Shown here in pieces: positions 2,800 through 31,957 of a stretch of DNA of 32,000 bases. The DNA lies in NCBI GenBank assembly GCA_900234795.1, contig LT962688.1:3990001-4022000 (forward strand). Direction: 5' to 3'. Each line of letters starts with the position of its first letter. The first letter of the stretch is position 1. Origin of the DNA: Methylorubrum extorquens (GTDB lineage: Bacteria; Pseudomonadota; Alphaproteobacteria; Rhizobiales; Beijerinckiaceae). The notes below the pieces were generated by a model. The model was not told the DNA's origin. It did no database searches and worked only from the letters and a program-made list of their open reading frames with translations. A program made the translations under genes and the position numbers.

Positions 2800-4432
2800 C
2801 CCGCTCCTGCCGGTCGCCGAACCCGCCACGGCGACGCTGACCCTTCCCGACGGCGTCGTTCTCGCCGCCGATGTCTGGCGCCCGGCCGGGCCCGGCCGCC
2901 ATCCCGTCCTCCTCATGCGCCAGCCCTACGGCCGCGCCATCGCCTCGACGCTGACCCTGGCCCATCCCGCCTGGTACGCCGCCCGCGGCTACATCGTCGT
3001 GGTTCAGGACGTGCGCGGGCGCGGCGGCAGCGGCGGCGCCTTCCACCTGTTCGAGCACGAGGCCGAGGATGGCGCGGCGACCCTCGCCTGGGCGGCGGAT
3101 CTGCCCGGATCGGACGGCCGGGTCGCGACCTACGGCTTCAGCTATCAGGCGGTGACGCAGTTCCTTGCGCTGGCGGGCGCCCTGCGCGGGGGCACCAAGC
3201 GGCCCGACGCGATCGTGCCGGCGATGGGCGGCTGGAGCATCCGCGACGACTGGGCCTATACCGGCGGCGCCTTTGGCCTTGCCGGCAATATCGGCTGGGT
3301 CTGCCAGATGGGCGCCGAGGCCGCCCGGCTCCGGGGCGACGCCGCCGCCTTCGCGGCGCTCGGCGCGGCGGCGCGCGGCACGCCCTGGAGCGGACCCGTC
3401 GCGGCCCATCCCGAGGCGCTCGCGGCCCACGCCACCGACCACCACTATTTCGACTGGCTCGGCGACGATCCGGCCCTTTGGGACCGGATCGCCCCGGCCC
3501 GCCGCCTCGCGGGGCGCGACCTCGCCGTGCCCGGCCTGCATGTCGGCGGCTGGCAGGATTTCCTGCTCGACGGCACGCTCGGCGCCTACGACGCCTTCTG
3601 CACCGGGCCGGCGCCGCAGCGTCTGCTGATCGGGCCCTGGACGCATTCCCCCTGGGGCCGCCGGGTCGGCAGCCTGGATCTCGGGCCGGAGGCGGTCACG
3701 CCGGTCGATACCGCGACGGTCGCCTTCCTCGATCACGTGCTGCACGGGTGCGAGGATCCGGGTCCGCCGGTCCGGCTCTTCGACGTGGGGGCTCGCGATT
3801 GGGCCAGTTTTTCCGAATGGCCGAACCCCGAACCGACGGCGCTGTATCTCGCCTCGGACGGCCTCGCCGCGACCGCTGCGAGCGGCCGCCTCGTGGCGGC
3901 GCCGGGGGAGGCCGGCGAGGACCGCCTCGTGCACGATCCCTGGCGTCCTGCACCGGTCGCCGGCGGGCCCTGGGGGACGCCGCCGGGCTATCAGGACCGC
4001 GCCGCCCTCGACGACCGCAGCGACGTCGCGGTCTATGACGGCCCGGTGATCGCCGCGCCCCTGCAGCTCGCCGGCCGCGTCGCGGCGGAGGTGTTCGTAA
4101 AAACCGCGGCGGCGAGCCACGACCTGCACGCCACGCTCTCCCTCGTGGAGCCGGACGGACGCGCCGTCACCCTCACCGCCGGCCATCTGCGGGTGGTCGA
4201 GGCCGCCCCCGGCCCACGGCGCCTCGCCATGCGGGGCCTGTGCTGCACGCTGTACCCCGGACAGCGCCTGCGCCTGTCGCTCCAGGCCGCCGCCTGGCCA
4301 GCCTTCGCCGTCAATCCCGGAACCGGGAGCTGCCCGGAGGTGACCCCAGCGATGCAGGCGCAGGTGATCGTTCTCGCCCTGCGCCACGGTGCCGAGCGGC
4401 CGTCGCGGCTGCTGCTGCCGGTGCTCGGGTGA
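2789..4432 (+). CDS. CocE/NonD family hydrolase (peptidase S15 / X-Pro dipeptidyl-peptidase-like alpha/beta hydrolase)
   Basis: ATG 2789 gives MPADPLLPV..LTLPDGVVLAADVWRPAGPGRHPVLLMRQPYGR..YIVVVQDVRGRGGSGG..TYGFSYQAV (nucleophile elbow), followed by a long C-terminal beta-domain. This is the typical CocE/NonD layout. It overlaps the inferred creatininase stop by 11 nt. The ORF track fuses it to the upstream gene only because the upstream frame is shifted. Confidence 0.8.
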   Translation: MPADPLLPVAEPATATLTLPDGVVLAADVWRPAGPGRHPVLLMRQPYGRAIASTLTLAHPAWYAARGYIVVVQDVRGRGGSGGAFHLFEHEAEDGAATLAWAADLPGSDGRVATYGFSYQAVTQFLALAGALRGGTKRPDAIVPAMGGWSIRDDWAYTGGAFGLAGNIGWVCQMGAEAARLRGDAAAFAALGAAARGTPWSGPVAAHPEALAAHATDHHYFDWLGDDPALWDRIAPARRLAGRDLAVPGLHVGGWQDFLLDGTLGAYDAFCTGPAPQRLLIGPWTHSPWGRRVGSLDLGPEAVTPVDTATVAFLDHVLHGCEDPGPPVRLFDVGARDWASFSEWPNPEPTALYLASDGLAATAASGRLVAAPGEAGEDRLVHDPWRPAPVAGGPWGTPPGYQDRAALDDRSDVAVYDGPVIAAPLQLAGRVAAEVFVKTAAASHDLHATLSLVEPDGRAVTLTAGHLRVVEAAPGPRRLAMRGLCCTLYPGQRLRLSLQAAAWPAFAVNPGTGSCPEVTPAMQAQVIVLALRHGAERPSRLLLPVLG

Positions 4433-5156: not shown

Positions 5157-6230
5157 CTACTGCGTCAGCCGGTCGTCGATTCCCTTCACGTACCAGTTCA
5201 TGCCGAGGATCATCGGGTCGGGGGCTTGCTCGCCCTCCTTCACCGCGACCGAGCCGTCCTGCTTGAGCACCGGCCCCTGGAACGGGTGGATCTTGCCCTC
5301 GACGATCCCCTTCTTGGTCTCCTCGGCCAGCGCCTTCACGTCGTCGGGCATGTTGGTGAAGGGTGCCAGCACGACCATGCCGTCCTTGATGCCGGCCCAG
5401 GTGTCCCCGCTCTTCCACGTGCCGTCGAGAACGGCCTTGGTCTCGGCAATGACGTAGCCGTTCCAGTCGTCGACGATCGAGGTGAGCTGCGCCTTCGGGG
5501 CGAAGCGGTACTGGTCGGAGGACTGGCCGAAGGCGAGCTTTCCGGCCTTCTCTGCCTCCTGCAGCGGCGCGGCGGAATCGGTGTGCTGGGTCAGGATGTC
5601 GGCGCCCTGGGCCAGCAAGGCCTTGGCCGCCTCCGCCTCCTTGCCGGGATCGAACCACGTGTTCACCCAGACGATCTTGATCTTGATGTCCGGGTTGACC
5701 GACTGCGCGCCGAGCATGAAGGCGTTAATGCCGCTCACGACTTCGGGGATCGGGAAGGAGGCGATGTAGCCGACGGTGCCCGACTTCGACAGCTTGCCGG
5801 CGATCTTCCCGCAGATGTAGCGGCCCTCGTAGAAGCGGGCCGAGTAGGTGGAGACGTTGTCGGCCCGCTTGTAGCCGGTGGCGTGGGCGAACTTCACCTT
5901 GGGGAATTTCTTGGCGACCTTCAGGGTCGGCTCCATGAAGCCGAAGGAGGTCGTGAAGATCAGGCCGGCGCCCGAGCGGGCGAGCTTCTCGATCGAGCGC
6001 TCGCTGTCGGCCTCGGGCACGTTTTCGAGGAAGGTCGTCTCGACCTTGCCGGGCAGCGCCTCGGCCAGCGCCTTGCGGCTGAGGTCGTGCTGGTAGGAAT
6101 AGCCGTAATCGGCGACCGGGCCGACATAGACGAAGCCCACCTTGAGCTTGTCCGCCGCCCGCGCCGGAGCCGCCGCGATGGCCGCGCACAGGAGTGCCCC
6201 GGCCACGCGCGTGACGATGCTGCCCATCAT
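5157..6230 (-). CDS. BMP-family (Med/PnrA-like) ABC transporter substrate-binding protein, orphan copy
   Basis: Start ATG at 6230 gives MMGSIVTRVAGALLCAAIAAAPARA/ADKLKVGFVYVGPVADYGYSYQHD.., a signal peptide plus the conserved BMP N-terminal motif. AGGGG lies upstream. The 445-aa ORF in the track extends upstream as non-coding-looking sequence. Confidence 0.85.
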   Translation of the reverse strand: MMGSIVTRVAGALLCAAIAAAPARAADKLKVGFVYVGPVADYGYSYQHDLSRKALAEALPGKVETTFLENVPEADSERSIEKLARSGAGLIFTTSFGFMEPTLKVAKKFPKVKFAHATGYKRADNVSTYSARFYEGRYICGKIAGKLSKSGTVGYIASFPIPEVVSGINAFMLGAQSVNPDIKIKIVWVNTWFDPGKEAEAAKALLAQGADILTQHTDSAAPLQEAEKAGKLAFGQSSDQYRFAPKAQLTSIVDDWNGYVIAETKAVLDGTWKSGDTWAGIKDGMVVLAPFTNMPDDVKALAEETKKGIVEGKIHPFQGPVLKQDGSVAVKEGEQAPDPMILGMNWYVKGIDDRLTQ

Positions 6231-6566
6231 GAGTGTCTGCCCCTTTTCGACGGCGTTGTCCGCCGCGGCTTGCCGGCGCCGCGCATGGGCGCCCGGGGGA
6301 ATTTCAGAGCAAGACCAGGGCCAGGAGGGGGCGCGGGAGACGCTGAGCGGATGCTGACGCATCCCATCGATGACCATCAGCGGTTCGGCTGGTCTTTGAG
6401 CATGGAGATCAATGCGCCGGTCGGGCGTCAAAGCCATGCTGATCCCGCAATGCCGGGCAGCGGGCCCCTGTGGCGATCGCTGACGCGAGGGCACGCCCGC
6501 GCGCTTGGCAGGCCGTCATCGAGCGCGGCTCGATCCTACGGATCGGGTCGCACGGAGCATCGGACC

Positions 6567-7379
6567 ATGGATGACCTCGTCCTTCGCATCATCATCTTCG
6601 CGATCGTTGGCTTAGTCTCCGGTTTCATATCCGGATTGTTCGGCATCGGCGGCAGCACCGTGCGCCTGCCCATTTTCATTTATCTGCTTCCCTGGGTCGG
6701 TATCGGGCAATCGGTCCTGATGCACGTGGCATCGGCAACATCCATGGCGCTGGTCATACCCAGTGCGATCACCGCGACCCGCAAGCAATATGCCCTCGGG
6801 AACCTCGATGTCGGGTTTTACAAGACATGGGTGATCGGTCTCTTCATCGGCGTTGCCTTAGGGGCAATCTTGCTTCCGCATGGATCGACCGAAATCCTGC
6901 AGACCCTGTTTGCGGTCTATATCCTTCTGGTCGGCTTCTACATCGCTTTCGGCCGTGGACGCTTTTCGTCCAGAAGTGAGCCGCCGTCGGGCAGCAAGAG
7001 GATCGGCATCGCTTCGTTCGTCGGGCTCGTGGCGGCTTTGACTGGAACAAGTGGCGGTACACTGACGACACCGATCCTGAGCACCTGCGGGCTCGCTCTC
7101 GAAAAGGCGATCGCGATCGCCTCCGCCACCGGACTGGTAACCGGAAGCATCGCGACGATCGGAGGCATCCTTTCCGGATGGCATGCCCCGGATCGACCCT
7201 CCTATTCGCTCGGCTACGTGTACCTCGTCATCTTCGTCGTGATGATGCCGACGGTGATGATCAGCGCGCCCTGGGGCGTCTCCGTCGGCGAGAAGTTCAG
7301 CGAGACGACGCTGCAGCGGACCTATGCCGCGTTGCTGATCCTGGTCGGCTTGGATCTCCTGCGGCGGCTGGCGTTCTGA
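6567..7379 (+). CDS. TauE/SafE (DUF81) family anion/sulfite exporter membrane protein
   Basis: ATG 6567 gives MDDLVLRIIIFAIVGLVSGFISGLFGIGGSTVRLP.. and, in the second half, a repeated TGTSGGTLTTP motif. Multiple hydrophobic spans give the typical 2x4-TM DUF81 organisation. The gene is visibly lower in GC than its neighbours. Confidence 0.85.
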   Translation: MDDLVLRIIIFAIVGLVSGFISGLFGIGGSTVRLPIFIYLLPWVGIGQSVLMHVASATSMALVIPSAITATRKQYALGNLDVGFYKTWVIGLFIGVALGAILLPHGSTEILQTLFAVYILLVGFYIAFGRGRFSSRSEPPSGSKRIGIASFVGLVAALTGTSGGTLTTPILSTCGLALEKAIAIASATGLVTGSIATIGGILSGWHAPDRPSYSLGYVYLVIFVVMMPTVMISAPWGVSVGEKFSETTLQRTYAALLILVGLDLLRRLAF

Positions 7380-7715
7380 CCCACAAGTGCGGGGCTTCGT
7401 GTCGGTGACCCTGGATCGCCGGCAGACCAGATCTGGCAAGGTCACGGGCGGTCGCCGAGCGATGAGTGCGGCCGGACGCGGCTGGAGATGTGCTGCCAGA
7501 GGCCAGTGACGGCCTGCGGATGCCGGGATCACGGCACTCAGGTCCCCATCTTGTCGTGCAGCGGACCTTCCGAGCCGTGGTCGCGAAGGTCTGGAAGGGG
7601 TTCGGACGCTTGGAGCGAGCTTGGATGGGCAGCAAGCTCCGCGCGGGGCCGAAAGCGGCCCGGTCCACGGTCAGATGGTTGAGATTGCCCCGACCAACCT
7701 GACGGCGTCCCCAGC

Positions 7716-19692: not shown

Positions 19693-20689
19693 TCAGAAGA
19701 TGTGGAAGGCGACGCCGGCGAGGAAGCTCTTCTCCTCGGTGCCCTTGAAGGTCGCGGTCTCCTGGTTGCCGAACTTGTTCAGCCAGTACTGGAAGCCGAT
19801 GAAGACATCGACCTTGTTGGGCTGATCGTAGGCGAGCTTGCCGAGATCGAGCACGAGGTTGGTGCGCGACAGGAATTCCAGCCCGCGCGGCGGGTTGAAC
19901 GCGAAGGCGGCGGGGTTGTTGCTGATGCCGCGGCCCTTGGGCAGGACGATGTTGTTGAAGCCGGCCAGCGTCAGCGGCAGACCGGTGAAGGTCAGCGGCA
20001 GGCTGTAGACGATCTCGAATTCGGGGACCGTGTTGAAGCTCTGGTCGCGGTCGGGCTGGGTGTTGAAGCCGTTGCGGTTCCATTCCTTGTAGGCGTGGAC
20101 CGACAGGTTCAGGAAGCCGGCCGGCACGTCGAAGGCGAAGTTCAGGCCGCCGACGACGTCGCGCTTCTTCGAGCCGAAGGCGTCGTTCTGCGAGTTGGCG
20201 TCGAAGCCGTAGGAGAGCGAGACCTCCTTGACGATGCCGGGGACCATGAAGGCCTTGGTGCCGGTCAGGGCGTTCAGGCTGAGCGTGCCGCGGTAGAGGC
20301 CGTAGGCTTCGGTGTTGCCGTAATCGGCGAAGGTCGGGATGCCACCGGGCGTGTTGGTCGTACCGGCCGGAAACTGAGAACCCGATTGCAGGATGTCGAG
20401 GGTGAAGAAGTTCGTGCCGTAGGCCCAGGCATCCGCGTGCGAGATGTTGAGGATGTGCTTGGGCGCCTCGCGCGAGCGGAAGCTGCCGTCCGGCCGCTGG
20501 ATCTGGATGCCGGGCGTGACGGTCGGGAACTGGTAGCGATAGCTGATCTGCGTGTCCGCGAAGAGGAAGAACGGCACTTCCTTCGCGGCCACCGCTTCGG
20601 GGGGCCCGCTTCTCCCCGAGATCCGCCGCGACCGCCGTACCCACCGTGAAGAGCGACAGCGCCACCGCCGCAAGTCCCCGAACCGACAT
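19693..20689 (-). pseudogene. Outer-membrane beta-barrel channel, tentatively Tsx/OmpK-like, with one apparent frameshift after the signal peptide
   Basis: ATG 20689 (GGGGAGAA SD) gives MSVRGLAAVALSLFTVGTAVA/ADLGEKRAP in one frame. The barrel, ..EAVAAKEVPFFLFADTQISYRYQ....FLAGVAFHIF* (alternating pattern, terminal Phe), is in another frame. The junction is the G6 run at 20599-20604. Length is 997 nt, one base more than a multiple of 3. Confidence 0.6.
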
Positions 20690-21196
20690 TCTTCGTTCTC
20701 CCCGACCATCCGTGTGGTCGGGCGGCAGCAACGGGGGTGCCAACACAAAACAAGCCGCAGCCCTCGGCGCCTATGCGGCAGCACAAGTCACAAATCCGCA
20801 ACACATTCTCGGCGGTGCCGGGCTGGGCCGCTTAGTGTATGGCCGGACCAGGACGCCTCTTAGAACCGGTGGGAGTTGGAGGATGAGCCTTTATCGCGCC
20901 GGGGTAATCCGTCGAACCTTCTCAGGCCGCCCACCGTCCGCTCATGCTGCGCATTTCATGGACGTGATGCTGGCAGGGCCGCGGAGTGAAAGCCGTTTGC
21001 GCGCACAGCCGTTCGCACCGTGCGGCCGGAGCCGGCGGCGTGCCGCCGTGGACTGCACAGGCCGACGCCAGCCTGACGACACTTCGTGCATCGGCGACGA
21101 TGATCGGGCACGATTTTTCGGGAGCCGAGCGCCATCATCGCGGCGGCCCGGACACGCTCCGGCCTCCGGCCCCGCGCGATCGCTCCGAGGTAGCCC

Positions 21197-21877
21197 ATGC
21201 CCGCCCCGCAGCCCCTTCTCGACGCCGAACCTGCACCCCTGCCGTTCGATCCGGCCCGGACGGCCCTCGTCGTCATCGACATGCAGCGCGACTTCCTCGA
21301 ACCCGGCGGCTTCGGCGAGAGCCTGGGCAACGACGTCTCGCTGCTCGCCGCCGCGGTGCCGCCCGCCCGCGCCCTGCTGGCCGCCGCGCGCGCGGCCGGC
21401 CTCCTCGTCGTCCACACCCGCGAGGGACACGCGCCCGATCTCTCGGACGCCCCGCCGGCCAAGCGGGAGCGCGGCGCGCCGACGGCGCGGATCGGCGAAC
21501 CGGGCCCGATGGGCCGCATCCTGATCCGCGGCGAGCCCGGCCACGACATCATCCCCGAACTGGCGCCCCTCGACGGCGAGCCGGTGATCGACAAGCCGGG
21601 CAAGGGCGCCTTCTACGCGACCGGGCTCGCGGCTCTGCTGGAGGCGCGCGGCATCGAAACCCTGATCGTCTGCGGCGTGACGACGGAGGTCTGCGTGCAC
21701 ACCACCGTGCGCGAGGCCAACGACCGCGGCTATCGCTGCGTCGTCGTCGCCGATGCCTGCGGCTCGTACATTCCGGCCTTCCACGAGGCGGGCCTTGCCA
21801 TGATCAAGGCCCAGGGTGGCATCTTCGGCTGGGTCTCGCGCTCCGCAGCGGTGATCGCCGCCCTTGGCCAAGCGTGA
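21197..21877 (+). CDS. Isochorismatase-like cysteine hydrolase, BiuH/TrtA-like (copy B)
   Basis: 226 aa. [29 protein letters not shown]. Alignable over its full length with copy A (shared TREGHxPDL.., [26 protein letters not shown], REANDRG). Confidence 0.85.
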
Positions 21878-21974
21878 GGCGCTCCTGAACGACGGAACGC
21901 ACCGCGGACCGGAGTGCCGGCCGTGGCGCGGCCATTGCACCGGACGCGAAGCGCCCGATCCTCAGGGGGAACCG

Positions 21975-22178
21975 ATGACCGATCACGCCGCGGAGACGCC
22001 GACGCCCGATCTCGACGCCTATGCCGCGGCGGCAGCCCCCCTGCTGGGCCTCACCCTCGATCCGGCCTGGACCGGGGCGGTCGTCGCCCACCTGCGGGTG
22101 CTCCACGCGGCGGCGGCGCTCGTCGGCGGGTTCCCGCTGCCCGACACCGCCGAGGCGGCGCCGGTCTACACGGCGTGA
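21975..22178 (+). CDS. AtzG-like / HpxX-like small protein (DUF4089, GatC-related)
   Basis: 67 aa. AGGGGGA SD upstream of ATG 21975. MTDHAAETPTPDLDAYAAAAAPLLGLTLDPAWTGAVVAHLRVLHAAAALV.. has the size and pattern of the small partner subunit of AtzE-type amidases. Its stop overlaps the amidase GTG (GTGA at 22175-22178). Confidence 0.65.
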   Translation: MTDHAAETPTPDLDAYAAAAAPLLGLTLDPAWTGAVVAHLRVLHAAAALVGGFPLPDTAEAAPVYTA

Positions 22179-23590
22179 GCGCGACGACGGATTGGAGCCT
22201 CGCCCCGGCCTCCGACATCGCCCGGGCCGTGTCGGCGGGGACGGTCGGCGCCCGCGACGTGGTCGCCGCCGCGCTGGATCGTATCGCCCGCATCGATCCG
22301 GCGGTGAACAGCTTCACCGAGCGCTTGGCCGAGCGCGCCACCGCCCGCGCCGCGGAGCTCGACGCCGCGCGGACCCGGGGCGACAGGCTCGGCCCCCTGG
22401 CCGGGGTGCCCTTCGCGGTCAAGAACCTGTTCGACGTCGCCGGGCTTCCGACGCGGGCGGGCTCGCGGATCAATCGCGAGCGGGCGCCGGCCACCCGCGA
22501 TGCCGCCCTGATCCGGCGGCTGGAGGCGGCGGGCGCCGTCCTGGTCGGGACGCTTGGCATGGGCGAGTACGCCTACGACTTCACCGGCGAGAACATCCAC
22601 GACGGCAACACCCACAATCCGCACGCCCTCGGCCACATATCCGGCGGCTCGTCCGGCGGCTCGGGCGCGGCGATCGCCGCCGGCCTGGTGCCGCTCGCGC
22701 TGGCCTCGGACACCAACGGCTCGATTCGGGTGCCCGCCGCCTTCTGCGGCTGCTTCGGGCTCAAGCCCACCTACGGGCGGTTGAGCCGGGCCGGGAGCTT
22801 CCCCTTCGTCGGCAGCCTCGATCATCTCGGGCCGATGGCGCGATCGAGCCGCGATCTCGCCCTGGCCTACGACGCGATGCAGGGGCCCGATCCCGAGGAT
22901 CCCGCCATGGCGTCCCGCCCGGCCGAGCCCGCGGCTCTGGACCTCGACCGGGGCGTCGCGGATCTTCGCATCGCGGTGGCCGGAGGCTACTTCGCGCAAG
23001 GGGGCGACCCGGAGGCCTTCGCCGCCGTCGCGCATGTCGCCCGCGCGCTGGGAGCGCGCTGCAGCGTCGTGATCCCGGAGGCGGCCCGCGCACGGGCGGC
23101 GGCCTACCTCATCACGGCGGCCGAGGGCGCCGCGCTGCATCTCGACCGGCTGCGCAGCCGAGCCGGCGACTTCGATCCGGCGGTGCGCGACCGGCTCATC
23201 GCCGGAGCGATGCTGCCCGCCCCCTTCGTGGAACGGGCGCAGCGTTTCCGCCGCTGGTATCGCGACGCCGTGCTGGCGCTGTTCCGCGAGGTCGATGTGA
23301 TCCTCGCGCCGAGCACGCCGGTCCGGGCACCACGCTCCGGCCAGACGACCTTCGTCCTCGACGGCGTTGAGTTGCCGGTGCGGCCCAATATCGGCGTGTT
23401 CACGCAGCCGATCTCGTTCATCGGCCTGCCCGTGGCCGCGGTGCCGGTCTGGCTCGACGGAGGCTTGCCGCTCGGCGTGCAGGTCATCGCTGCGCCCTGG
23501 AACGAGGCGCTCTGCCTGCGGGTGGCGCATCACCTCGAACGCGAGGGTGCGGTCCGGGCGCCGGTCGCGACCGTGAAGGACACGCGATGA
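22175..23590 (+). CDS. AtzE-family amidase (amidase-signature, GatA-like)
   Basis: 471 aa from GTG 22175. Catalytic contexts are PFAVKNLFDVAG (Lys), GGSSGGSGAA (cis-Ser) and ASDTNGSIRVPAAFCG (nucleophile Ser). It sits between AtzG-like and AtzH-like genes, with overlapping start/stop codons on both sides. Confidence 0.85.
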   Translation: MSATTDWSLAPASDIARAVSAGTVGARDVVAAALDRIARIDPAVNSFTERLAERATARAAELDAARTRGDRLGPLAGVPFAVKNLFDVAGLPTRAGSRINRERAPATRDAALIRRLEAAGAVLVGTLGMGEYAYDFTGENIHDGNTHNPHALGHISGGSSGGSGAAIAAGLVPLALASDTNGSIRVPAAFCGCFGLKPTYGRLSRAGSFPFVGSLDHLGPMARSSRDLALAYDAMQGPDPEDPAMASRPAEPAALDLDRGVADLRIAVAGGYFAQGGDPEAFAAVAHVARALGARCSVVIPEAARARAAAYLITAAEGAALHLDRLRSRAGDFDPAVRDRLIAGAMLPAPFVERAQRFRRWYRDAVLALFREVDVILAPSTPVRAPRSGQTTFVLDGVELPVRPNIGVFTQPISFIGLPVAAVPVWLDGGLPLGVQVIAAPWNEALCLRVAHHLEREGAVRAPVATVKDTR

Positions 23591-23994
23591 TCATCGACGA
23601 TCCCGCGGTGAAGGCTGAGGTCGAGCGGGTCTTCGCGACCTACGAGGCGGCGCTCGTGAGCAACGACGTCGCGACGCTCGAACGGCTGTTCCACGACGAT
23701 CCCCGCACGATCCGCTACGGCGCGGCGGAGAACCTCTACGGCATGGACGCGATCCGCGCCTTCCGCCGGGCGCGGCCCTCGCAGGGCCTCGCCCGCGACC
23801 TCGCGGGCACCGTCATCACCACCTTCGGCCGCGACTGCGCCGTGGCGATGACGCTGTTCCGGCGCGAGGGCGCCCCCGGCCGCGTCGGACGCCAGAGCCA
23901 GACCTGGCTGCGCTTTCCCGACGGCTGGAAGGTGGTGGCGGCCCATGTCAGCGTCATCGACGACGCTCCCGGTGAGGGCGCGAGCGGCGCTTGA
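23587..23994 (+). CDS. AtzH-like / HpxZ-like NTF2-fold protein (DUF3225)
   Basis: 135 aa. There is an ATGA overlap with the amidase stop. VERVFATYEAALVSNDVATLERLFHDDPRTIRYG..QTWLRFPDGWKVVAAHVS is the characteristic SnoaL/NTF2-like DUF3225 pattern. Confidence 0.75.
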   Translation: MIIDDPAVKAEVERVFATYEAALVSNDVATLERLFHDDPRTIRYGAAENLYGMDAIRAFRRARPSQGLARDLAGTVITTFGRDCAVAMTLFRREGAPGRVGRQSQTWLRFPDGWKVVAAHVSVIDDAPGEGASGA

Positions 23995-24030: not shown

Positions 24031-24062
24031 ACGTCAGTGGGCTTGGACGTCAGTGGGCTTGC
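24031..24062. repeat. Tandem 16-nt duplication spanning the stop codon of the NCS2 permease gene
   Basis: ACGTCAGTGGGCTTG occurs at 24031-24045 and again at 24047-24061. The unit contains the last codons and the TGA of the permease. Confidence 0.85.
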
Positions 24063-25450
24063 GCGACCTCGGCCTGACGGATCGCCGCCTCACGGGATTC
24101 CGCTCGGTCGCCGAATCCATTGAAGAACAGGTTCAGCCCCACCGCCGCGATCGCGGCGAGCAGAATGCCCGATTCCAGCAGCGGATGCAGCGCGTGCGGC
24201 ATCTGCTTGAAGAAGTTCGGCGCGACGAGCGGGATCATGCCGAAACCGACCGAGACCGCGACGACGAACAGGTTGTTGCGGTTGCGCGCGAAATCGACGC
24301 CGCCGAGGATGCGCGTGCCGGTCGCGCCCACCATGCCGAACATCACGAGGCCGGCCCCACCGAGCACGCATTGCGGCACGGCCTCGACCAGGGCCGCGAG
24401 CTTCGGGACCAGTCCGAGGCCGAGCATGATGAAGCCCGCGGTCACCGTGACCCAGCGCGAGCGGATGCCGGTGACCCCGACGAGCCCGATATTCTGCGAG
24501 AACGAGGTGTAGGGAAACGTGTTGAAGATGCCGCCGATGACGGTGCCGAGCCCGTCCGCGCGCAGGCCCCGCGTCAGCCGCCGCTCGTCGACCGGATCGG
24601 CAGTGATCTGCGACAGGGCCAGGAACATCCCGGTCGATTCGATCATCACGACGATCATCACGAGGCACAGGGTGACGACCGAGACCGGATCGAAGCTCGG
24701 CCAGCCGAAGGCGAAGGGGCGCACCATATCGAACCAGGGCGCCGCGGCGACGCGGTCGAGCTCCACCAGCCCGGCAAAGCCGGCCAGCACCATGCCGAGC
24801 GCGATCCCGATCAGCACCGAGGCCGAGGCGACGAAGCCCGTGGCGTAGCGGGTGATCGCGAGGATCGCGCAGAGCACGAAGGCCGCGATGCCGAGATAGA
24901 CGGGGGCGCCGTAATTCGGGTTGCCGACGCCGCCGGCGGCCCAGTTCACCCCGACCCGCATCAGCGAGATGCCGATGACCAGAATGATGGTGCCGGTCAC
25001 GACCGGTGGGAACAGCGGCAGGAGGCGTCCGATCACCGGTGCGGCGATGAGGCCGAACAGGCCGGAGGCGATGACGGCGCCGTAGATGCCGGTGAGGCCG
25101 ATCGCCGGGTTCGTCCCCATGGAGAGCATCGGGCCGACGGCCGCAAAGGTGACCCCCATCATCACCGGCATGCGGATGCCGATGCCGGGCAGGCCCCAGC
25201 TCTGGATCAGCGTGACGATCCCGCAGGCGAACAGGTCGGCGCTGACCAGCATGGCCACCTGCTCGGGCGGCAGCTTGAGCGCCCGTCCGATGATGAGCGG
25301 GATCGCCACGGCGCCCGCATACATCACGAGCACGTGCTGCAGCCCGAGCAGGCCGAGGGCCGCGGGGGGAACCCGTTCCTCGGGCTTGAGGGGCACCGGA
25401 CCCTCGATCTCGGCCGCGGAATCCGGCTGGGAAGGCGCCATCAACACCAT
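24050..25450 (-). CDS. Nucleobase:cation symporter-2 (NCS2) family permease (xanthine/uracil/urate type)
   Basis: 466 aa, polytopic. LGLQHVLVMYAGAVAIPLIIG near the N-terminus and the NCS2 signature-like VPQCVLGGAGLVMFGMVGATG. Confidence 0.9.
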   Translation of the reverse strand: MVLMAPSQPDSAAEIEGPVPLKPEERVPPAALGLLGLQHVLVMYAGAVAIPLIIGRALKLPPEQVAMLVSADLFACGIVTLIQSWGLPGIGIRMPVMMGVTFAAVGPMLSMGTNPAIGLTGIYGAVIASGLFGLIAAPVIGRLLPLFPPVVTGTIILVIGISLMRVGVNWAAGGVGNPNYGAPVYLGIAAFVLCAILAITRYATGFVASASVLIGIALGMVLAGFAGLVELDRVAAAPWFDMVRPFAFGWPSFDPVSVVTLCLVMIVVMIESTGMFLALSQITADPVDERRLTRGLRADGLGTVIGGIFNTFPYTSFSQNIGLVGVTGIRSRWVTVTAGFIMLGLGLVPKLAALVEAVPQCVLGGAGLVMFGMVGATGTRILGGVDFARNRNNLFVVAVSVGFGMIPLVAPNFFKQMPHALHPLLESGILLAAIAAVGLNLFFNGFGDRAESREAAIRQAEVAQAH

Positions 25451-25745
25451 GGGAGAGATGCTCCGAACGTCCGGACGCGGTTGCAGGTGTTATGCCAGAG
25501 AGCGACCACGGCCTGTGCCGCCCTCGGCGCGGAAGGCCGCCTGTCGCCGGTACTCGTTGCGCCGCGTGCCGTCGAATCGCGCGCAAGATCCGTTCTCCCC
25601 GGCGAGCCCGGCGCGATGTCCTCGATCTGCGACCCGGTTTCGGGACCATGTCGATCTCTCAACCCGGTCCCGTCCGAAGGAAGGCCAGGAGCCCCAACGA
25701 GGCATTCTCTCGGCGGTGCGGCGTTGTGGATGGTTCACTCGGCTC

Positions 25746-25915
25746 ATGGCCAAGGTGTCTCGCGCGTGGGAGGCGGATCAGGGCCGGCTTCTGTCGCCCT
25801 CGCTGCACGAGTTCGTGCCGCCGGGCACAGGGCGCAGTTTGGGCAGGATACGATGCGGGAAGCGCTCGACCTGTCGGCCCGCCTCGACACCGAGGAGCGC
25901 GGCTACCCGGACGTT
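25746..25915 (+). pseudogene. Decayed N-terminal remnant of a DDE transposase (IS1182/IS5-superfamily-like)
   Basis: ATG 25746 gives MAKVSRAWEADQGRLLSPSLHEFVPPG. After a 1-nt frame slip near 25826 it continues HRAQFGQDTMREALDLSARLD. This resembles the DRxQxxLLPPSLxDxVPxDHPxRxIxxFVDxLDL N-terminus of these transposases. Nothing further is recognisable downstream. Confidence 0.35.
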
Positions 25916-26093
25916 TCAGGCTTGGCCTGTCACACCACAGTCGGAACCGTAGAGCGAACTGGCCCGTGACTGTTTTCCCAGCACAAAACCATCAAATGAT
26001 ATAAATTTAGTCTGCAAGCACAGCATTGTCTCTTGAGCGACTCGGCCGCCGCTTCCTAGCCTCGCGCCCGGTAATCAACTCGAGAGAACGGCC

Positions 26094-29000
26094 GTGCCCC
26101 AGTCCCAAGCGAGCGCCCTGCGCGATGTCGTGCGCGCCACCTATCGGCGCGCGGGGCTCGACAAGTCCGAGACCGAACTCGAGGCTCTGCTTCCCACCGT
26201 CCGGCCGTTGATCGACTTCGATCCGCGCGAGGCCCGCGAGGCCGACATCGTCGGCCTGCTGGGCAAACTTACCTTGCGGGACGCATCCCTGCCCGCCGCG
26301 CCCGGACCCGTCTCCCTGGTCCGTACGCTGTCGAAGGAGCCGCTGGCTGCCTATGGCGGCACGACGCCCGACATCACGACCAAGTCGGCCACGGAACTCG
26401 CCGCCCTGCTGGCGAGCGGCACGATCACCTCGCGGGAGATCGTGCTCCAGTACATGTACAAGATCCAGAAGCTCGACCGCGCCGGTCCGGCTCTGCGATC
26501 GGTGACGGAACTCAACCCCGAGCTTCTGACCATCGCCGACCGCATGGATGCGCGCCGGGCCGAGGCCAAGGCGAAAGGAGAGACGCTGCCGGACCTGTTC
26601 GGCATCCCGATCCTCCTCAAGAACAACATCGAGACCGGCGACCATCTCCGCACCACCGCCAGTTCGATGGCCCTGATCGGCTCGAAGCCCGCGGACGACG
26701 CGCCCCTGGTGGCCAACCTGCGCGAGCAGGGTGCCATCATCATGGGCAAGACCAACATGAGCGAGTGGGCCAACTTCCGGGGCGGGATCGTTCTCAGCGG
26801 ACAGGGCGGAACCGCCATCAACCCGTTCGGGCCCGATCGGCCGCTATACGGCTCGAGCGTCGGGTCGGGCATTGCGGTTGCCATGGATTTCGCACCGCTC
26901 ACCGTCGGGACGGAGACCAACGGCTCGATCACGAGTCCGTCCACGGGCTACCACATCTGGGGTCTCAAGCTGACGCGCGGCCTCGTGGATGGCGCCGGCA
27001 TCATCCCGGGCATCGCGTCGCTGGATGCGCCCGGTCCCATGGGATCGAACCCGGCCGATCTCGCCCTGATGCTCAACGGGATGCGGGGGAGCGGCACGTC
27101 CGGCTCCGCAAATCCGCCGACCGACTACACCAGCAAGATGAACGGCGATCTGACAGGTGTCAGGATCGGCGTCGATACCACCGACGCATCTCCGGCATTC
27201 GTGTCCCTGCTTTCGGCCGCCGCGACAGGGTCCGGGGCGACGTTGGTCACCTACAACAAGGCGGCCTACGACCAGGCCGTCTATGCGGCGGTGCGCGGCC
27301 TCGACACGGCGGAGATCGGCGAACTCGTCAAACTGTATAATGGATTGGCGCCCTCGACAGCCGTAACCCAGGCTCAAATCGATGCGTTCTTAAAAATACT
27401 CGTTACCGATATGTTAAACCAATGGTACACCGCCTTTCCTCTGAGTACGGCCATAGGAAACGCATACGGACTCATCTCTGCATACGAGCTCAGGAAGTAC
27501 ATCGACGAGAATCTGGGTGCGCGCGAAGCGAATCCTCAGGACTACGACAGCGCCCTGGTTCGACTGCTCGGTACCACCTTCCGGCCGCTTAGCGGCGACG
27601 GGGCGAAATTCGCGCGCGATCTGCCGGATGTCGTTGCATTCAACGCAGCGAATCCGGAGATCGAGAGGGTCGGCTTCGGGTTCGACACTTTCGTCAGCGT
27701 CGCCAGGCTGAGCCTCGATGACCTCGTCAGGAGCTCAGGTTTCGATTCCGCCGCCGCGCTCGAAGCCGCCGCCGTAAACTGGAAGGGGATCATCGGGAAG
27801 ATCCTTCACGAGGTGAGAGCCGGTCTCGGCGTCGATGTCTCGTTCGATACCCGGTTCGACGAGAATGCGATGGCGTTCGCAAACTCGCCTCAGTTGGTCG
27901 TTCCCGTCGGTCCGGGACGCGGTTCCACCGGGCAGATCATGAACGCCGACCCGTTCGGCGAGGAGGCTATGCTTCGGGTCGGCTACGCCCTGAACGAGAA
28001 GCTGAACGACCCCGCCTTCGCGAGCCTGCGCGCGCTATCCCCGTCCATCCCCGAGACGGGCTTCACCAATCAGCCGGCCGACCGGGGCCCGCCTCTGCCG
28101 TTGGTGCTGCACGATCTGGACGACCACGGTCGGGCGACGCTGGCCCATCTCCTCACCACCGAGATGGCCCCCCTCGTGCTCCACACCACCGGCAACCTCG
28201 ACCTGCCCACCTTCGACGGGCGCATCTCCGGCAATGGCGGCCTGATCAAGGAGGCCGACGGCGTTCAGGCCCTCACCGGCGACAGCGACTTCACCGGCAC
28301 CGTCCAGGTCTGGAAGGGCGCCCTGGCGATCGACCGCAACCAGGCCCTCGGCAGCGCCGCCAACGCCGTCAGCCTCGAAGCCGGCAGCGCCCTGATCGCC
28401 AGCCGCAGCCTCACCCTGGCCCGCGACCTCCTCCTGAAGAACGGCGGCGGCCTCGGCGCCGGAGCCGAGATCACCCTGATCGCCGACGGCGTGATCGCCG
28501 GCAATGGCGGCCTGACCAAGACCGGGGCCGGCCAGCTGACCCTGGCGGGCATCAACACCTATACCGGCGGCACCCGCGTCGCCGAAGGCGTTCTGGCCGT
28601 CGCCGCCGATGCCGGGCTCGGCCAGGATTACGGCGCGCTGCGCTTTGCCGCCGGCACCGGCCTGCTCGTCACCGGCAGCTTCGCCACCCAGCGGCCGTTC
28701 CAGCTCGACGGGGAGACCCACCTCTCCATCCGGGCCGGAGCCTCCCTGACGGTGAACAACCTCATCGACGGCGCCGGCAGCCTCGTCCTCGACGGCGGCG
28801 GCAGCCTCACCCTGGCCGCGGCCGCCAACCGCTTCGCCGGCGGCATCCAGCTCAAGGCCGGCACCCTCGCCCTCGACGGGGCCGGCGCCGCCGGGCTCGG
28901 CCCGATCCGCTTCGAGGCCGGGCCCCAGACCCTCGTCCTCGACGCCGCCGCCTTCCAGTCCGGGGTGTTCGGGGGCACGATCGCCCGGTTCGGCACCGCC

Positions 29001-30992
29001 GACACGATCAGCCTGGCCGATCTCGCCTACACCGCCGGCGCCACCGCCCAGTACGATCCCACCGCCCAGGCGCTGACCGTCGTCAGCGGCGGCCTCACCC
29101 GCCAGCTCACCCTGTCCGAGGTCGGCCGCGGCGGCTTCACCCTGGCCTCCGACCCGGCCGGCGGCACCCGCGTCCTGCTCACCGGCGTGCCCGTCGGCCT
29201 CGCCGCTTCGGGGCCGGGCCTCGACGCCCAGGGCAACGGCCTGCTGAAGGCCGGGGCCGTCCTCACCTTCACCGTCGAGATGTCCGATCTCGTCACCGTC
29301 GAGACCGGCGCGGGCCGCCCCGTGCTGGTCCTGTCCAACGGAGCGGAGGCGGCCTATACCGGCCAGTCGAACGGGACGAGCCTCGGCTTCGCCTACACCG
29401 TCGCCCCCGGACAGGACAGCCAGGCCCTCACCGTCACCCGGCTCGACCTGCGCGGTGCCGTCATCCGCGACACCGGCGGCCACGTGGCCGACGTGACCGC
29501 CCTTCCCGCCGCCCCGTCGGGCACGATCACCCTCGACACCACCGCGCCGACGCTGGCCCTGACCGCAGCACCGCCCGCCACGGTCGAGGCGAGCTCCGCC
29601 GCGGGCGCGGCCGTGAGCTTTGCCGCCAGTGCCGGAGACGGGGTCGATCCGGCCCCGCGCGTGGTGTTCCGGTCGGGCGACACCGTGGTGTCCTCCGGCC
29701 AGACCTTCGCGCTCGGCACCCACAGCGTCACCGCCACCGCTTTCGATGCCGCCGGCAATGCCAGCGCTCCGGTCTCGTTCGACTTTACGGTTCAGGACAG
29801 CACCGCGCCGACGCTGGCTCTGACGGTCCCGCCGCCCAGCACCGTCGAGGCGAGTTCCGCCGCGGGTGCCGCCGTGAGCTTTACCGCCAGCGCCGGGGAC
29901 GGCGTCGATCCGGCCCCGCGCGTCGTGTTCCGCGCCGGCGACACCGTGGTGACCTCGGGCCAGACCTTCGCGCTCGGCACCCACAGCGTCACCGCCACCG
30001 CTTTTGATGCTGCCGGCAATGCCAGCGCTCCGGTCTCGTTCGACTTCGCCGTGACGACCCCGGTCGCGCCGGCCACGGCGAGCTTCGACTTCGCCCTGAG
30101 CCAGGCCAGCCTGCGCCAGGCCCCGGGACACATCGCCCTGATCGGGCCGGACGGCCTGAGCCACGACGTCACCGCCGTCGAGACCTTCGTGTTCAGCGAT
30201 GGCGTCGTCCGGCAGAAGGACGCCGCCCCGCTGGTCGACGACCTGTTCTACTACGCCGCCAACCCCGACGTCTGGCAGGCCCAGATCGATGCCGAGGCGC
30301 ACTATGCCGCCTATGGCTGGCGCGAGGGCCGCGACCCGAACGCCGCCTTCTCGACCGGGGGCTATCTCGCCGCCAACCCGGAGGTGGCCGCGGCCGGCCT
30401 CGACCCGCTGGTCCACTTCGCGCAAACGGGCTGGAAGGAGGGCCGCGATCCCGCCGCCGGCTTCGACGTCGAACGCTACCTCGCCCGCCATCCGGAGGCG
30501 CGGGCGGCCGGCCTCGATCCGCTCAGCCACTACCTCGCCCAGGGCCGGGCCGAGGGTCACGTCGCCCACGCCGCGATCGGACGCCCGGCCGATCTGGCCG
30601 AGCAGGGCGGCTTCGACGCGCAGGCCTATCTGCTGTCCAACCTCGACGTGGCCGAGGCGGCCCGGGCGGCCGGGGGCGACAGCTTCGCCTTCGCCCGGAC
30701 GCACTACACGACCTATGGCTGGCAGGAGGGGCGCAACCCGAACGCGGTGTTCGACACCAAGGGCTATCTCGCCGCCTACGGCGACGTGGCAGCAGCCGGG
30801 ATCGATCCGCTCGCCCACTATGTCCGGTACGGCGCGGCGGAGGGGCGCGATCCCTCCGCCGGCTTCGACGGCAAGGCCTACCTCGCCGCCAACAGTGACG
30901 TGGCCGCGGCAGGGCTGAACCCGATGCTGCACTATCTCCAGTACGGCGCCGCCGAGGGCCGCAGCGCCTTCGCCGACGGGCACTTCGCCTGA
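26094..30992 (+). CDS. Giant multidomain protein: N-terminal amidase-signature domain fused to a PATR beta-helix, Ig/HYR-like modules and C-terminal repeats
   Basis: 1632-aa ORF from GTG 26094.
- aa ~95-640: amidase-signature fold with GIPILLK176NN, GS254SVGSG and GTETNGS278ITSP. The Lys-Ser-Ser spacing of 78/24 compares with 75/24 in FAAH as I recall it.
- aa ~700-960: autotransporter-associated beta-strand repeats (GNGGLTKTGAGQLTLAGINTYTGGTRVAEGVLAV).
- aa ~960-1148: adhesin-type beta modules.
- aa 1150-1323: two 87-aa HYR/Ig-like copies.
- aa ~1383-1632: six YLAANPDVAAAGxDPLxHYxxxGxxEGRDP repeats.
There is no N-terminal signal peptide, no C-terminal beta-barrel and no GGxGxD repeats. Confidence 0.85.
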   Translation: MPQSQASALRDVVRATYRRAGLDKSETELEALLPTVRPLIDFDPREAREADIVGLLGKLTLRDASLPAAPGPVSLVRTLSKEPLAAYGGTTPDITTKSATELAALLASGTITSREIVLQYMYKIQKLDRAGPALRSVTELNPELLTIADRMDARRAEAKAKGETLPDLFGIPILLKNNIETGDHLRTTASSMALIGSKPADDAPLVANLREQGAIIMGKTNMSEWANFRGGIVLSGQGGTAINPFGPDRPLYGSSVGSGIAVAMDFAPLTVGTETNGSITSPSTGYHIWGLKLTRGLVDGAGIIPGIASLDAPGPMGSNPADLALMLNGMRGSGTSGSANPPTDYTSKMNGDLTGVRIGVDTTDASPAFVSLLSAAATGSGATLVTYNKAAYDQAVYAAVRGLDTAEIGELVKLYNGLAPSTAVTQAQIDAFLKILVTDMLNQWYTAFPLSTAIGNAYGLISAYELRKYIDENLGAREANPQDYDSALVRLLGTTFRPLSGDGAKFARDLPDVVAFNAANPEIERVGFGFDTFVSVARLSLDDLVRSSGFDSAAALEAAAVNWKGIIGKILHEVRAGLGVDVSFDTRFDENAMAFANSPQLVVPVGPGRGSTGQIMNADPFGEEAMLRVGYALNEKLNDPAFASLRALSPSIPETGFTNQPADRGPPLPLVLHDLDDHGRATLAHLLTTEMAPLVLHTTGNLDLPTFDGRISGNGGLIKEADGVQALTGDSDFTGTVQVWKGALAIDRNQALGSAANAVSLEAGSALIASRSLTLARDLLLKNGGGLGAGAEITLIADGVIAGNGGLTKTGAGQLTLAGINTYTGGTRVAEGVLAVAADAGLGQDYGALRFAAGTGLLVTGSFATQRPFQLDGETHLSIRAGASLTVNNLIDGAGSLVLDGGGSLTLAAAANRFAGGIQLKAGTLALDGAGAAGLGPIRFEAGPQTLVLDAAAFQSGVFGGTIARFGTADTISLADLAYTAGATAQYDPTAQALTVVSGGLTRQLTLSEVGRGGFTLASDPAGGTRVLLTGVPVGLAASGPGLDAQGNGLLKAGAVLTFTVEMSDLVTVETGAGRPVLVLSNGAEAAYTGQSNGTSLGFAYTVAPGQDSQALTVTRLDLRGAVIRDTGGHVADVTALPAAPSGTITLDTTAPTLALTAAPPATVEASSAAGAAVSFAASAGDGVDPAPRVVFRSGDTVVSSGQTFALGTHSVTATAFDAAGNASAPVSFDFTVQDSTAPTLALTVPPPSTVEASSAAGAAVSFTASAGDGVDPAPRVVFRAGDTVVTSGQTFALGTHSVTATAFDAAGNASAPVSFDFAVTTPVAPATASFDFALSQASLRQAPGHIALIGPDGLSHDVTAVETFVFSDGVVRQKDAAPLVDDLFYYAANPDVWQAQIDAEAHYAAYGWREGRDPNAAFSTGGYLAANPEVAAAGLDPLVHFAQTGWKEGRDPAAGFDVERYLARHPEARAAGLDPLSHYLAQGRAEGHVAHAAIGRPADLAEQGGFDAQAYLLSNLDVAEAARAAGGDSFAFARTHYTTYGWQEGRNPNAVFDTKGYLAAYGDVAAAGIDPLAHYVRYGAAEGRDPSAGFDGKAYLAANSDVAAAGLNPMLHYLQYGAAEGRSAFADGHFA
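29541..30062 (+). repeat. Tandem in-frame duplication, 2 x 261 nt (2 x 87 aa), inside the giant gene
   Basis: ACCGCGCCGACGCTGG starts at 29541 and again at 29802. By my alignment the two encoded units (TAPTLALT..GTHSVTATAFDAAGNASAPVSFDF) are identical at 77 of 87 residues. Confidence 0.9.
30240..30989 (+). repeat. Six degenerate ~37-aa coding repeats at the C-terminus of the giant protein
   Basis: The pattern (F)xxxxYLAANP(D/E)VAAAG(L/I)(D/N)PLxHYxxxG(W)xEGR(D/N)Pxxx recurs at about aa 1384, 1422, 1461, 1507, 1557 and 1596. Confidence 0.7.
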
Positions 30993-31444: not shown

Positions 31445-31957
31445 GTGTTTGCAGGTATGCAGCTAGACAGCCATAAGATCGACTACCCCCGCTCCTACTG
31501 CTCTCAGAATTCAAACGGCAAGGCCGATCAGCCCGCAGGCGCGACGTTGCGAAGTACCCTTCTCCTCGATGGCCCAGCTCACGGCTGTTCTGCGTGCGCC
31601 GCGCGCCAGAAGTTTTTTCCCAAAGCCTCGCGCAGCGTCGCCACGTCGAGCAACGCCTCGGCGGTGAGCTTCTTGAGCTTGCGGTTCTCCTCGTCGAGCG
31701 CCTTCAAGCGGCGCGCATCCGAGACCGCCATGCCGCCGAAGCGCGAGCGCTACGTGTAGAACGTCGCGTCGCTGATGCCGTGGCGACGGCAGACCTCAGC
31801 CACCAGAAGCCCAGCCTGCTGCTCCTTCAGGATGCCGACGATCTGCTCTTCGCTGAACCGGCTCTGCTTCATCGTCCGCCTCCTCATCGACGGACCCGAG
31901 CTTCAGAATGAGGGCGGACCAGGGGGTAAGGTCAGCCGACTTCGGGGTTTCCGGTCA
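31445..31957 (-). mobile_element. Truncated IS3-family insertion sequence remnant (left end, orfA, start of orfB)
   Basis: The minus strand begins TGACCGGAAACC.. at 31957, a typical IS3 terminal TGA. orfA starts at ATG 31872. The slippery GGGAAAAAAC (plus-strand T6 at 31613-31618) precedes an orfB-like continuation, KKLLARGARRTAVSWAIEEKGTSQRRACGLIGL, that stops at 31511. The remainder of the element is missing. Confidence 0.7.
31579..31872 (-). pseudogene. IS3-family transposase orfA with a premature stop
   Basis: MKQSRFSEEQIVGILKEQQAGLLVAEVCRRHGISDATFYT*RSRFGGMAVSDARRLKALDEENRKLKKLTAEALLDVATLREALGKNF. The in-frame TAG at 31750-31752 sits where the family has FYxW(K/R). Confidence 0.7.

Follow-up and report, generated by a model that had tools for sequence, protein, structure and literature searches.

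A Pam-like amidase on a β-helical stalk in Methylorubrum extorquens, a relative of type Va autotransporters with a putative replacement export module

Results

A single intact gene encodes the stalked amidase

We analysed a stretch of 32,000 nucleotides (nt) of the Methylorubrum extorquens genome (assembly GCA_900234795.1, contig LT962688.1, positions 3,990,001 to 4,022,000 of the forward strand), referred to here as the window. At 26094..30992 on its plus strand lies a gene for a protein of 1632 amino acids (aa), in which an amidase-signature enzyme is followed by a β-helical stalk, immunoglobulin (Ig)-like modules and a C-terminal module of 312 residues. Comparison with its relatives suggests that this protein lost the export parts of a type Va autotransporter and that the C-terminal module stands in their place. 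The open reading frame (ORF) begins with GTG and is uninterrupted, as the original prediction had described, and its product is identical to SOR30891.1 of the protein collection (‘putative amidase-related protein’, M. extorquens; the record belongs to a 5.72-Mb contig). GC contents of 0.69/0.53/0.88 at the three codon positions display a coding-type bias in a window of ~70% GC. The reading frame is closed by a stop at 26034-26036, 20 codons 5′ of the GTG, and contains no other start in that interval, so that no signal peptide can be encoded upstream of the ORF. The protein contains no cysteine in its 1632 residues and has an isoelectric point of 4.8.

The window and the corresponding region of M. 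extorquens CP019322 are syntenic and share 96.7% identity. Compared with the orthologue from that genome, the whole gene has a ratio of nonsynonymous to synonymous substitution rates (dN/dS) of 0.21; the value for the amidase is 0.18, that for the C-terminal module 0.17 and that for the N-terminal unit 0.11. Purifying selection acts on the gene, which is neither an artefact nor decaying; these dN/dS values led us to reject a reading of it as a pseudogene. Further members of 1632 aa are ABY30089.1, which we take to be from strain PA1, and WIU41398.1 (5.48-Mb contig), together with a protein of Methylobacterium sp. Leaf92 (0.63-Mb contig). Longer strain forms have 1719/1721 aa (1721 in DM4, CAX23964.1), 1806 aa (ACK82856.1, presumably strain CM4) and 1894 aa (SL192), and the combination of amidase and stalk is maintained in many strains as well as in a 76%-identical variant, P0006. 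Short reads could collapse a 261-nt tandem repeat with 90% identity that is present within the gene, which raises the suspicion of an assembly error that joined separate genes or shortened the repeat. We find this scarcely credible, as homologues in other species share the same amidase-stalk junction, and we rejected it in view of the occurrence of 1632-aa forms in independent assemblies. No match was returned by an Rfam scan of the window, and a promoter and terminator scan around the gene gave nothing above chance.

The head has a complete amidase-signature fold and is closest to Pam

The Pfam Amidase family (PF01425) matches aa 124-365 with an E-value of 1.8e-45 and 156.3 bits (cut-off 27), a match that spans only positions 7-246 of the 445 in the model. 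Because sequence profiles reach only the first half of the fold, we modelled aa 1-700 with AlphaFold2 (AF2) from a 50-sequence alignment, obtaining a predicted local distance difference test (pLDDT) value of 86.3 and a predicted template-modelling (TM) score (pTM) of 0.84. In a Foldseek search, this model covered the entire chain of the peptide amidase Pam (PDB code 1m22; E 5e-25, TM-score 0.81 normalised to the 487-residue target). In the model, aa ~93-650 (26370..28043, plus strand) form a complete amidase-signature fold, of which aa ~365-590 constitute a helical elaboration specific to the family. The catalytic residues lie in their expected motifs, with K176 in LLKNNI (26619-26621), S254 in GSSVGSG (26853-26855) and S278 in GTETNGS (26925-26927), all read on the plus strand. 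They are invariant in the 50-sequence alignment and align to the matching conserved motifs of Pam, which bears out the earlier claim of an intact amidase-signature domain with this triad.

The best PDB match in a phmmer search was likewise peptide amidase (1m21, E 3.4e-47), followed by an engineered form (5ac3) and an amidase from Bacillus anthracis. GatA, biuret hydrolase/AtzE, allophanate hydrolase and Tse8 were far weaker matches. The NCBIfam models for Pam-like enzymes aligned to the N-terminal core only and remained below their equivalog cut-offs (PRK08137, 234.6 against 534; PRK06828, 213.3 against 494), and the cut-offs of the AtzE family (NF006631, 123.9 against 461) and of GatA (TIGR00132, 113.2 against 481) were not reached either. 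The nearest stand-alone enzymes are amidases of 500-550 aa with 43-50% identity over the catalytic core only. By these sequence comparisons the head is closest to the Pam-like clade, though not a member of an NCBIfam family; NCBIfam, phmmer against the PDB and Foldseek concur in this, and the previous assignment to a GatA/AtzE type is to be abandoned.

Tse8, a secreted member of the amidase-signature family, is nevertheless among the structural matches, and the head could on that account be viewed as a toxin directed against competitors. We consider this highly improbable. Tse8 is distant, with an E-value of 8.5e-18 compared with 3.4e-47 for Pam and a lower TM-score, and a stalk of variable length favours display over delivery. 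Immunity-like, PAAR, VgrG and Rhs features were not seen in the flanks of the gene, in an inspection that included no direct test.

N-terminal unit, junction, stalk and Ig-like modules

The head is preceded by a three-helix unit at aa 1-60 (26094..26273, plus strand), which the AF2 model and the alignment identify as family-specific. Its helices comprise residues 3-19, 26-39 and 49-58 and are predicted with pLDDT >90. The N-terminal 102 aa gave no Pfam or NCBIfam match at E-values up to 10. We also considered the N-terminal 92 aa as a fused partner of the AtzG/GatC kind, a candidate that was rejected when BLASTP against the AtzG-like protein of the window gave no alignment. A Pro-rich linker, modelled with low confidence (pLDDT 49-72), connects the unit to the head (aa 61-92; 26274..26369, plus strand).

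Between head and stalk lies a junction, NQPADRGP-LPLVL-DLDDHGRA--AHLLTTEMAPLVL (28044..28229, plus strand), whose invariant alignment columns provide a signature for the family. The junction is near-invariant across homologues, and a pattern search found it at five loci in 185,579 species-representative genomes, all of them Methylobacterium; judged by this signature, the family is narrow. The stalk that follows is a predicted PATR β-helix with three units starting at aa 713, 803 and 893 (28230..29093, plus strand), supported by three stretches each of PF12951 (63 bits) and TIGR02601 (70.7 bits). The next ~147 aa (1001-1147; 29094..29534, plus strand) had been described as BapA-like β modules; no profile supports this description, and no significant Pfam match was obtained. 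Two tandem HYR/Ig-like modules of 87 aa each then complete the stalk region (29535..30053, plus strand), both matching PF02494 with 40-43 bits against a cut-off of 21.7. PATR repeats and HYR/Ig modules were both part of the original prediction, and both scored above the Pfam or NCBIfam cut-offs.

The HYR modules are encoded by the 261-nt tandem repeat mentioned above (Tandem Repeats Finder: period 261, 2.0 copies, 90% matches), and CP019322 carries additional copies. The strain forms of 1632, 1719/1721, 1806 and 1894 aa differ by multiples of the 87-aa module, their lengths fitting two to five copies. Near-identical tandem DNA repeats with a copy number that varies between strains, in a predicted surface protein, are the features by which periscope-type proteins are recognised. 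A separate kind of length variation was seen in P0005, which has a deletion within the PATR region rather than a change in HYR copies.

Relatives of the protein have signal peptides and autotransporter barrels

A search with the whole protein returned about twenty relatives that have the amidase and PATR region in common. Those with names are all Methylobacterium or Methylorubrum, and the others are metagenome proteins. In nine of them (P0009-P0015, P0017 and P0021), the autotransporter barrel PF03797 accompanies Amidase and PATR. All six barrel-bearing homologues included in the N-terminal alignment (P0009, P0010, P0011, P0013, P0014 and P0017) possess a signal peptide of 30-40 aa, for example ...LLLLGTTMLTWIGPAPAQS or ...LLGALWLTVPASAQAS, and a signal peptide, without a barrel match, was also seen in P0016 and P0020, which are partial sequences. 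These signal peptides immediately precede a common ‘ALRDVVRAAYxRAGQ’ region, and in the barrel-bearing homologues the three-helix unit directly follows the cleavable peptide. Judging from these domains, most of the full-length relatives listed are ordinary type Va autotransporters. The combination of amidase and stalk is therefore not an orphan, as Methylobacterium homologues carry the same N-terminal region, amidase and PATR stalk together with a signal peptide and a barrel. That no known family displays an amidase on an adhesin-like scaffold, as had been stated, holds for the literature that we could search, in which queries on amidase-signature autotransporters, on the accessions of the protein and on the M. 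extorquens ‘amidase-related protein’ found nothing; it does not hold for the sequence collections, which contain a small Methylobacterium/Methylorubrum family that is mostly type Va.

The window protein, its M. extorquens orthologues, the proteins P0001, P0004 and P0006, and the relatives P0008 and P0018 start at the ‘ALRDVVRAAY’ region and have no signal peptide. P0008 has RTX repeats and a typical type I tail at its end, P0018 has a Hint_2 domain there, and the M. extorquens form ends in the Ig modules and the C-terminal module. One passenger is thus found with four C-terminal ends. Of the homologues checked, those with a barrel and the two partial sequences have a signal peptide, and those with other ends lack it. 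Pfam and motif searches of the window protein detected no PF03797, no PF00353 and no GGxGxD motif. Of the three hallmarks of a type Va protein it retains one, the PATR β-helical passenger; signal peptide and PF03797 barrel are absent. The absence of export hallmarks noted at the outset (signal peptide, barrel, RTX and, in the window, secretion genes) is therefore real, and from the family comparison the type Va parts appear to have been replaced and not simply to be missing.

The C-terminal module is a widespread element without a catalogued family

The C-terminal module occupies aa 1321-1632 (30054..30989, plus strand). It consists of a small β sub-domain (aa ~1328-1373; nt 30075-30212), the six predicted repeats of ~37 aa, which we recovered as helical repeats with the pattern YLxxNPDVAxAGxDPLxHYxxxGxxEGRxP (aa ~1380-1620; nt 30231-30953), and a terminal motif, EGRSAFADGHFA (nt 30954-30989), all on the plus strand. 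These last 312 aa match 1222 proteins (clustered at 90%) over almost their entire length with 50-68% identity. With few exceptions among the 120 proteins checked, the match stops within a few residues of the C-terminus, and module-bearing proteins usually end in EGRSxFxDGHFG or a variant of it. The cargo on the N-terminal side of the module includes RTX, matrixin, serralysin C-domain, lipase-like, GH16, GH26, CHRD, cadherin, VCBS and Calx-beta domains, and in P0320 and P0354 RTX repeats lie immediately 5′ of the module. None of the ~158 module-bearing proteins inspected has a signal peptide. Cysteine is absent from 92% of the 120 proteins and from 34 of 38 larger ones, including proteins of 2,565 and 2,791 aa. 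One module-bearing protein, P0061 (UniRef ‘Protease’; L011, 10001-12498), has a gene for an Inh-family protease inhibitor (PF02974) after it and no adjacent transporter genes; the pairing with an Inh-type inhibitor mirrors serralysin/AprI loci.

Searches of the C-terminal 312 aa against Pfam and NCBIfam gave no match at E-values up to 10. The AF2 model of the module has a pLDDT of 95.3 and a pTM of 0.90 and comprises the β sub-domain followed by the helical-repeat domain. Foldseek found no match to the module in the PDB at E ≤0.001. The β sub-domain weakly resembles the C-terminal RTX block (block V) of CyaA and type I secreted lipases, at a statistically non-significant level (Foldseek probability 0.63-0.97, E 0.2-2). 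In an exhaustive phmmer search, the ~37-aa repeat was detected in 21,947 representative clusters (13,159 at E ≤1e-10), some of which have the C-terminal module and others of which are large glycosyltransferases (group 1, RgpF) with 5-13 internal copies. Examples of the latter are P0275, P0283, P0290 and P0303, in which arrays of 5-13 copies lie inside glycosyltransferases of 1000-2500 aa (Glyco_trans_1_4, RgpF). As these enzymes are presumably cytoplasmic, the repeat alone is not an export signal. Its distribution marks the helical repeat as a general building block, which may bind glycans. The full module, complete with β cap and fixed terminal motif, behaves in sequence comparisons like a C-terminal sorting element and is a candidate for a new domain or sorting-signal family.

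Two alternatives to export by type I secretion bear on this module. In the first, the protein would leave the cell independently of Sec by another route, with the module serving as signal or anchor for an undescribed transport or attachment system. The lack of a Pfam or NCBIfam model and of a solved-structure match, the many module-bearing proteins without RTX repeats and the absence of linked type I genes from every locus examined all speak for such a route. We nevertheless hold it to be unlikely, since module-bearing proteins frequently contain RTX repeats and the serralysin C-domain immediately before the module, and since freedom from cysteine and lack of a signal peptide form the classic profile of a type I substrate; type I systems with many substrates are moreover often unlinked to them.

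In the second, the protein would be the cytoplasmic, functionless remnant of a decaying autotransporter. Both defining type Va export parts are indeed absent, remnants of mobile elements lie on the flanks of the gene, and one relative, from M. mesophilicum, appears truncated and has a disrupted neighbour. The 4.9-kb ORF is intact, however, with the low dN/dS given above extending to the newly acquired C-terminal module (0.17), and the architecture is retained in many strains and in P0006 at 76% identity. The replacement C-terminus is, furthermore, not random and is a conserved module that shares 50-68% identity with more than 1,200 others. Decay is improbable on these grounds.

Neighbouring genes and mobile-element remnants

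Upstream of the amidase gene are an isochorismatase-family gene (21197-21877), AtzG-, AtzE- and AtzH-like genes (about 21972-23994) and a xanthine/uracil-type permease gene (24050-25450, minus strand); an amidohydrolase, Bmp-type ATP-binding cassette (ABC) importers, a CN-hydrolase and a second isochorismatase are encoded farther upstream. The true AtzE-like gene is this neighbour, at about 22175-23590, and not the stalked amidase. This arrangement suggests an extracellular scavenger that would partner the AtzEGH, isochorismatase and permease cluster by releasing a ureide or amide for import and mineralisation. The gene adjoins the cluster here and in CP019322, as had been pointed out for the window, and in Methylobacterium sp. 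DB1607 (L002, 3744-14432) the barrel-bearing P0009 is located within this cluster too, at another position, where the AtzG-like and isochorismatase genes flank it. Linkage was found in two of the four distinct genomic contexts examined. In M. fujisawaense and Methylobacterium sp. UNCCL125, the homologue (8001 onward) is instead arranged head-to-head with an autotransporter composed of Peptidase_S8, PATR and barrel (minus strand; L003/L004, 1020-6566, and L007/L008, 1281-6521), and the ORF layout in M. phyllostachyos (L021) suggests the same S8 pairing. The RTX version, P0008, adjoins neither the AtzEGH cluster nor an S8 autotransporter. With the IS remnants described below, which suggest insertion, and with peptide amidases rather than AtzE, AtzF or biuret hydrolases as the closest enzymes, a scavenger tied to the cluster is doubtful; a functional tie to the ureide cluster is possible and not general. 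The S8 and amidase autotransporters could be a processing or functional pair, and a peptide-directed enzyme would suit the S8 protease pairing at least as well.

Of the two mobile-element scars reported on either side of the gene, the one downstream was verified: an insertion sequence (IS) remnant at 31582..31872 on the minus strand is an IS3-family orfA (HTH_Tnp_1) with an internal stop (PF01527, E 2e-25). The upstream stretch (25746-25915) has no Pfam match, its likeness to the N-terminus of an IS5/IS1182-type protein being an unverified impression by eye. A 72-aa ORF between the permease and amidase genes (about 25441..25662, minus strand) has an orthologue, in L001, with a precomputed hit to rve_3, which would mark it as a remnant of an integrase core; the hit was not reproduced in our own Pfam scan. 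The gene thus appears to sit in an IS-scarred spot. As the scan of the genome collection for the junction returned no M. extorquens locus, and as IS remnants flank the gene, it may be strain-variable within M. extorquens, and the genome representing the species may be one without it.

Several features of the remaining window are recorded here in their own right. At 2066-4432 (plus strand), a 788-aa ORF represents an unusual fusion of Creatininase (aa 2-215) with a Peptidase_S15/PepX_C (CocE/NonD-type) hydrolase. A Bmp/PnrA-like binding protein is encoded at 5157-6494 (minus strand), with an N-terminal extension of ~116 aa if the longest ORF is real; its start is possibly miscalled. Between the genes for the Bmp-type binding protein and the ABC ATPase lies a gap of ~1.2 kb with reduced GC (6495-7715; GC 0.64-0.67), in which we found no ORF with coding-type GC at the third codon position and no Rfam match. 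A 363-aa ORF with strong coding bias and no Pfam match is located at 19693-20784 (minus strand), and at the equivalent position beside the isochorismatase gene L001 and L002 have a 331-aa gene, also without a Pfam match.

Discussion

A proposed route from autotransporter to Sec-independent display

The interpretation that we favour, and regard as reasonably probable, is that the gene encodes a Pam-like amidase which is displayed on the cell surface, or possibly released, after Sec-independent export, probably by type I secretion, following replacement of the type Va parts. The export route, surface retention and substrate that we infer are as follows. The ancestor would have been a type Va autotransporter whose amidase-PATR passenger was combined with a Sec signal peptide and a β-barrel. 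In the M. extorquens lineage, both type Va export parts would have been lost, and the protein would have come to end in a module that is attached to many proteins of the Sec-independent secreted type in Methylobacterium and related bacteria. The C-terminus emerges first in type Va passengers as well as in type I substrates, which makes an exchange of export modules mechanically plausible. Export would start from the C-terminus, most probably through a type I system that is unlinked to the gene and handles many substrates, with the β sub-domain and the extreme C-terminal motif acting as export signal and folding nucleus. The helical repeats might then retain the protein on the cell envelope, possibly via a surface polysaccharide, and the two to five Ig modules together with the PATR β-helix would project the amidase outward and set its distance from the surface. 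There the enzyme would hydrolyse an extracellular amide, with peptide C-terminal amides or a related small amide as the most likely substrates.

The window protein fits the profile of a type I substrate in being acidic, cysteine-free and without a signal peptide, and the same profile recurs across module-bearing proteins. Several observations nevertheless weigh against our interpretation. No secretion genes of the ABC, membrane fusion protein (MFP) or TolC type are present in the window or within 10 kb downstream in the syntenic strain, the ABC components in the window being the Bmp-type importers, and type I secretion genes were also absent beside five other module-bearing genes examined. The window protein lacks RTX repeats, the likeness of its β sub-domain to an RTX cap does not reach significance, and the repeat arrays recur in presumably cytoplasmic glycosyltransferases. 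The head, in turn, scores well under the cut-off of every NCBIfam amidase equivalog. A search of the literature on Methylobacterium secretomes and type I secretion found nothing specific and no secretome or activity data. As regards the missing transporter genes, linkage of a type I substrate to its transporter is common, not obligatory.

A broader version can be envisaged, which we think unlikely in its entirety. The module would be the sorting or anchoring signal of a new substrate class, either a branch of type I secretion that does not depend on RTX or a distinct route, and would place hundreds of enzymes on the surface of Methylobacterium, Methylorubrum and their relatives. The amidase-PATR passenger would have moved between type V, RTX-type and module ends, and its head would feed the adjacent nitrogen-salvage cluster of AtzEGH and permease.

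What is new here is an amidase-signature passenger family whose M. extorquens member seems to have exchanged its type Va parts for an uncatalogued module. The module is the most novel part, as it is widespread, confidently predicted and absent from the catalogues; defining it would improve the annotation of more than 1,000 proteins that carry it in full. If our interpretation is true, amidase-signature enzymes join proteases, lipases/esterases and phosphatases as heads displayed on β-helical passengers. With barrel, RTX, Hint_2 and module ends in one family, nature would have provided an experiment on β-helical export and on the exchange of secretion systems. The gene occurs in well-studied methylotroph strains, DM4 by name, and is hence tractable. 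Pam-type enzymes are used for the C-terminal modification of peptides, so that a surface-displayed Pam-like enzyme would, if real, be of biocatalytic interest.

Comparison with known systems

Pam from Stenotrophomonas maltophilia (1M21/1M22; engineered form 5AC3) shares the amidase-signature fold and the Ser-cisSer-Lys triad with the head of the window protein and is its best sequence match and among its best structure matches. Pam is also an exported enzyme. It stands alone, with solved chains of ~490-500 residues, whereas the window protein adds the helical elaboration of ~225 aa and the N-terminal three-helix unit and is fused to ~980 aa of stalk and C-terminal module; identity over the structural alignment is 26%. 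Tse8, a type VI secretion system effector of Pseudomonas aeruginosa (6TE4/6YHV), is another amidase-signature family member that is sent out of the cell. It differs in its distant relationship (E 8.5e-18), in its secretion system and in having no stalk.

Enzymes of the type I RTX group and giant surface proteins (AprA, LipA and LapA-type) resemble the window protein in lacking a signal peptide and cysteines, in their acidity, in their Ig-like spacers and, as proposed here, in C-terminal export information, and the sibling P0008 has true RTX repeats like these substrates. The window protein differs from RTX type I substrates in having no nonapeptides and no linked ABC/MFP genes, and in the helical-repeat structure of its C-terminal 310 aa. 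Inspection by eye of the alignment showed no conserved LapG-type di-alanine site in the N-terminal region.

The autotransporter activities listed in a survey are protease, lipase and phosphatase, and the solved structures are chymotrypsin-like proteases, an esterase and a subtilase (PMC9977779). As in the window protein, enzyme-tipped autotransporters such as the subtilase Ssp, the SPATE proteases and the esterase EstA carry an N-terminal catalytic domain on a PATR-containing β-helix (PMC9977779). Compared with these, the amidase class is new, and the window protein is without signal peptide and barrel.

The final likeness is to periscope proteins, a concept that rests largely on Gram-positive wall-anchored adhesins. 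In these variable-length surface proteins (PMC9704523), near-identical tandem DNA repeats encode Ig-like modules in strain-variable number, a feature that recurs here with two to five copies judged by length. Unlike those of the periscope adhesins, the repeats of the window belong to an enzyme-bearing protein of a Gram-negative bacterium.

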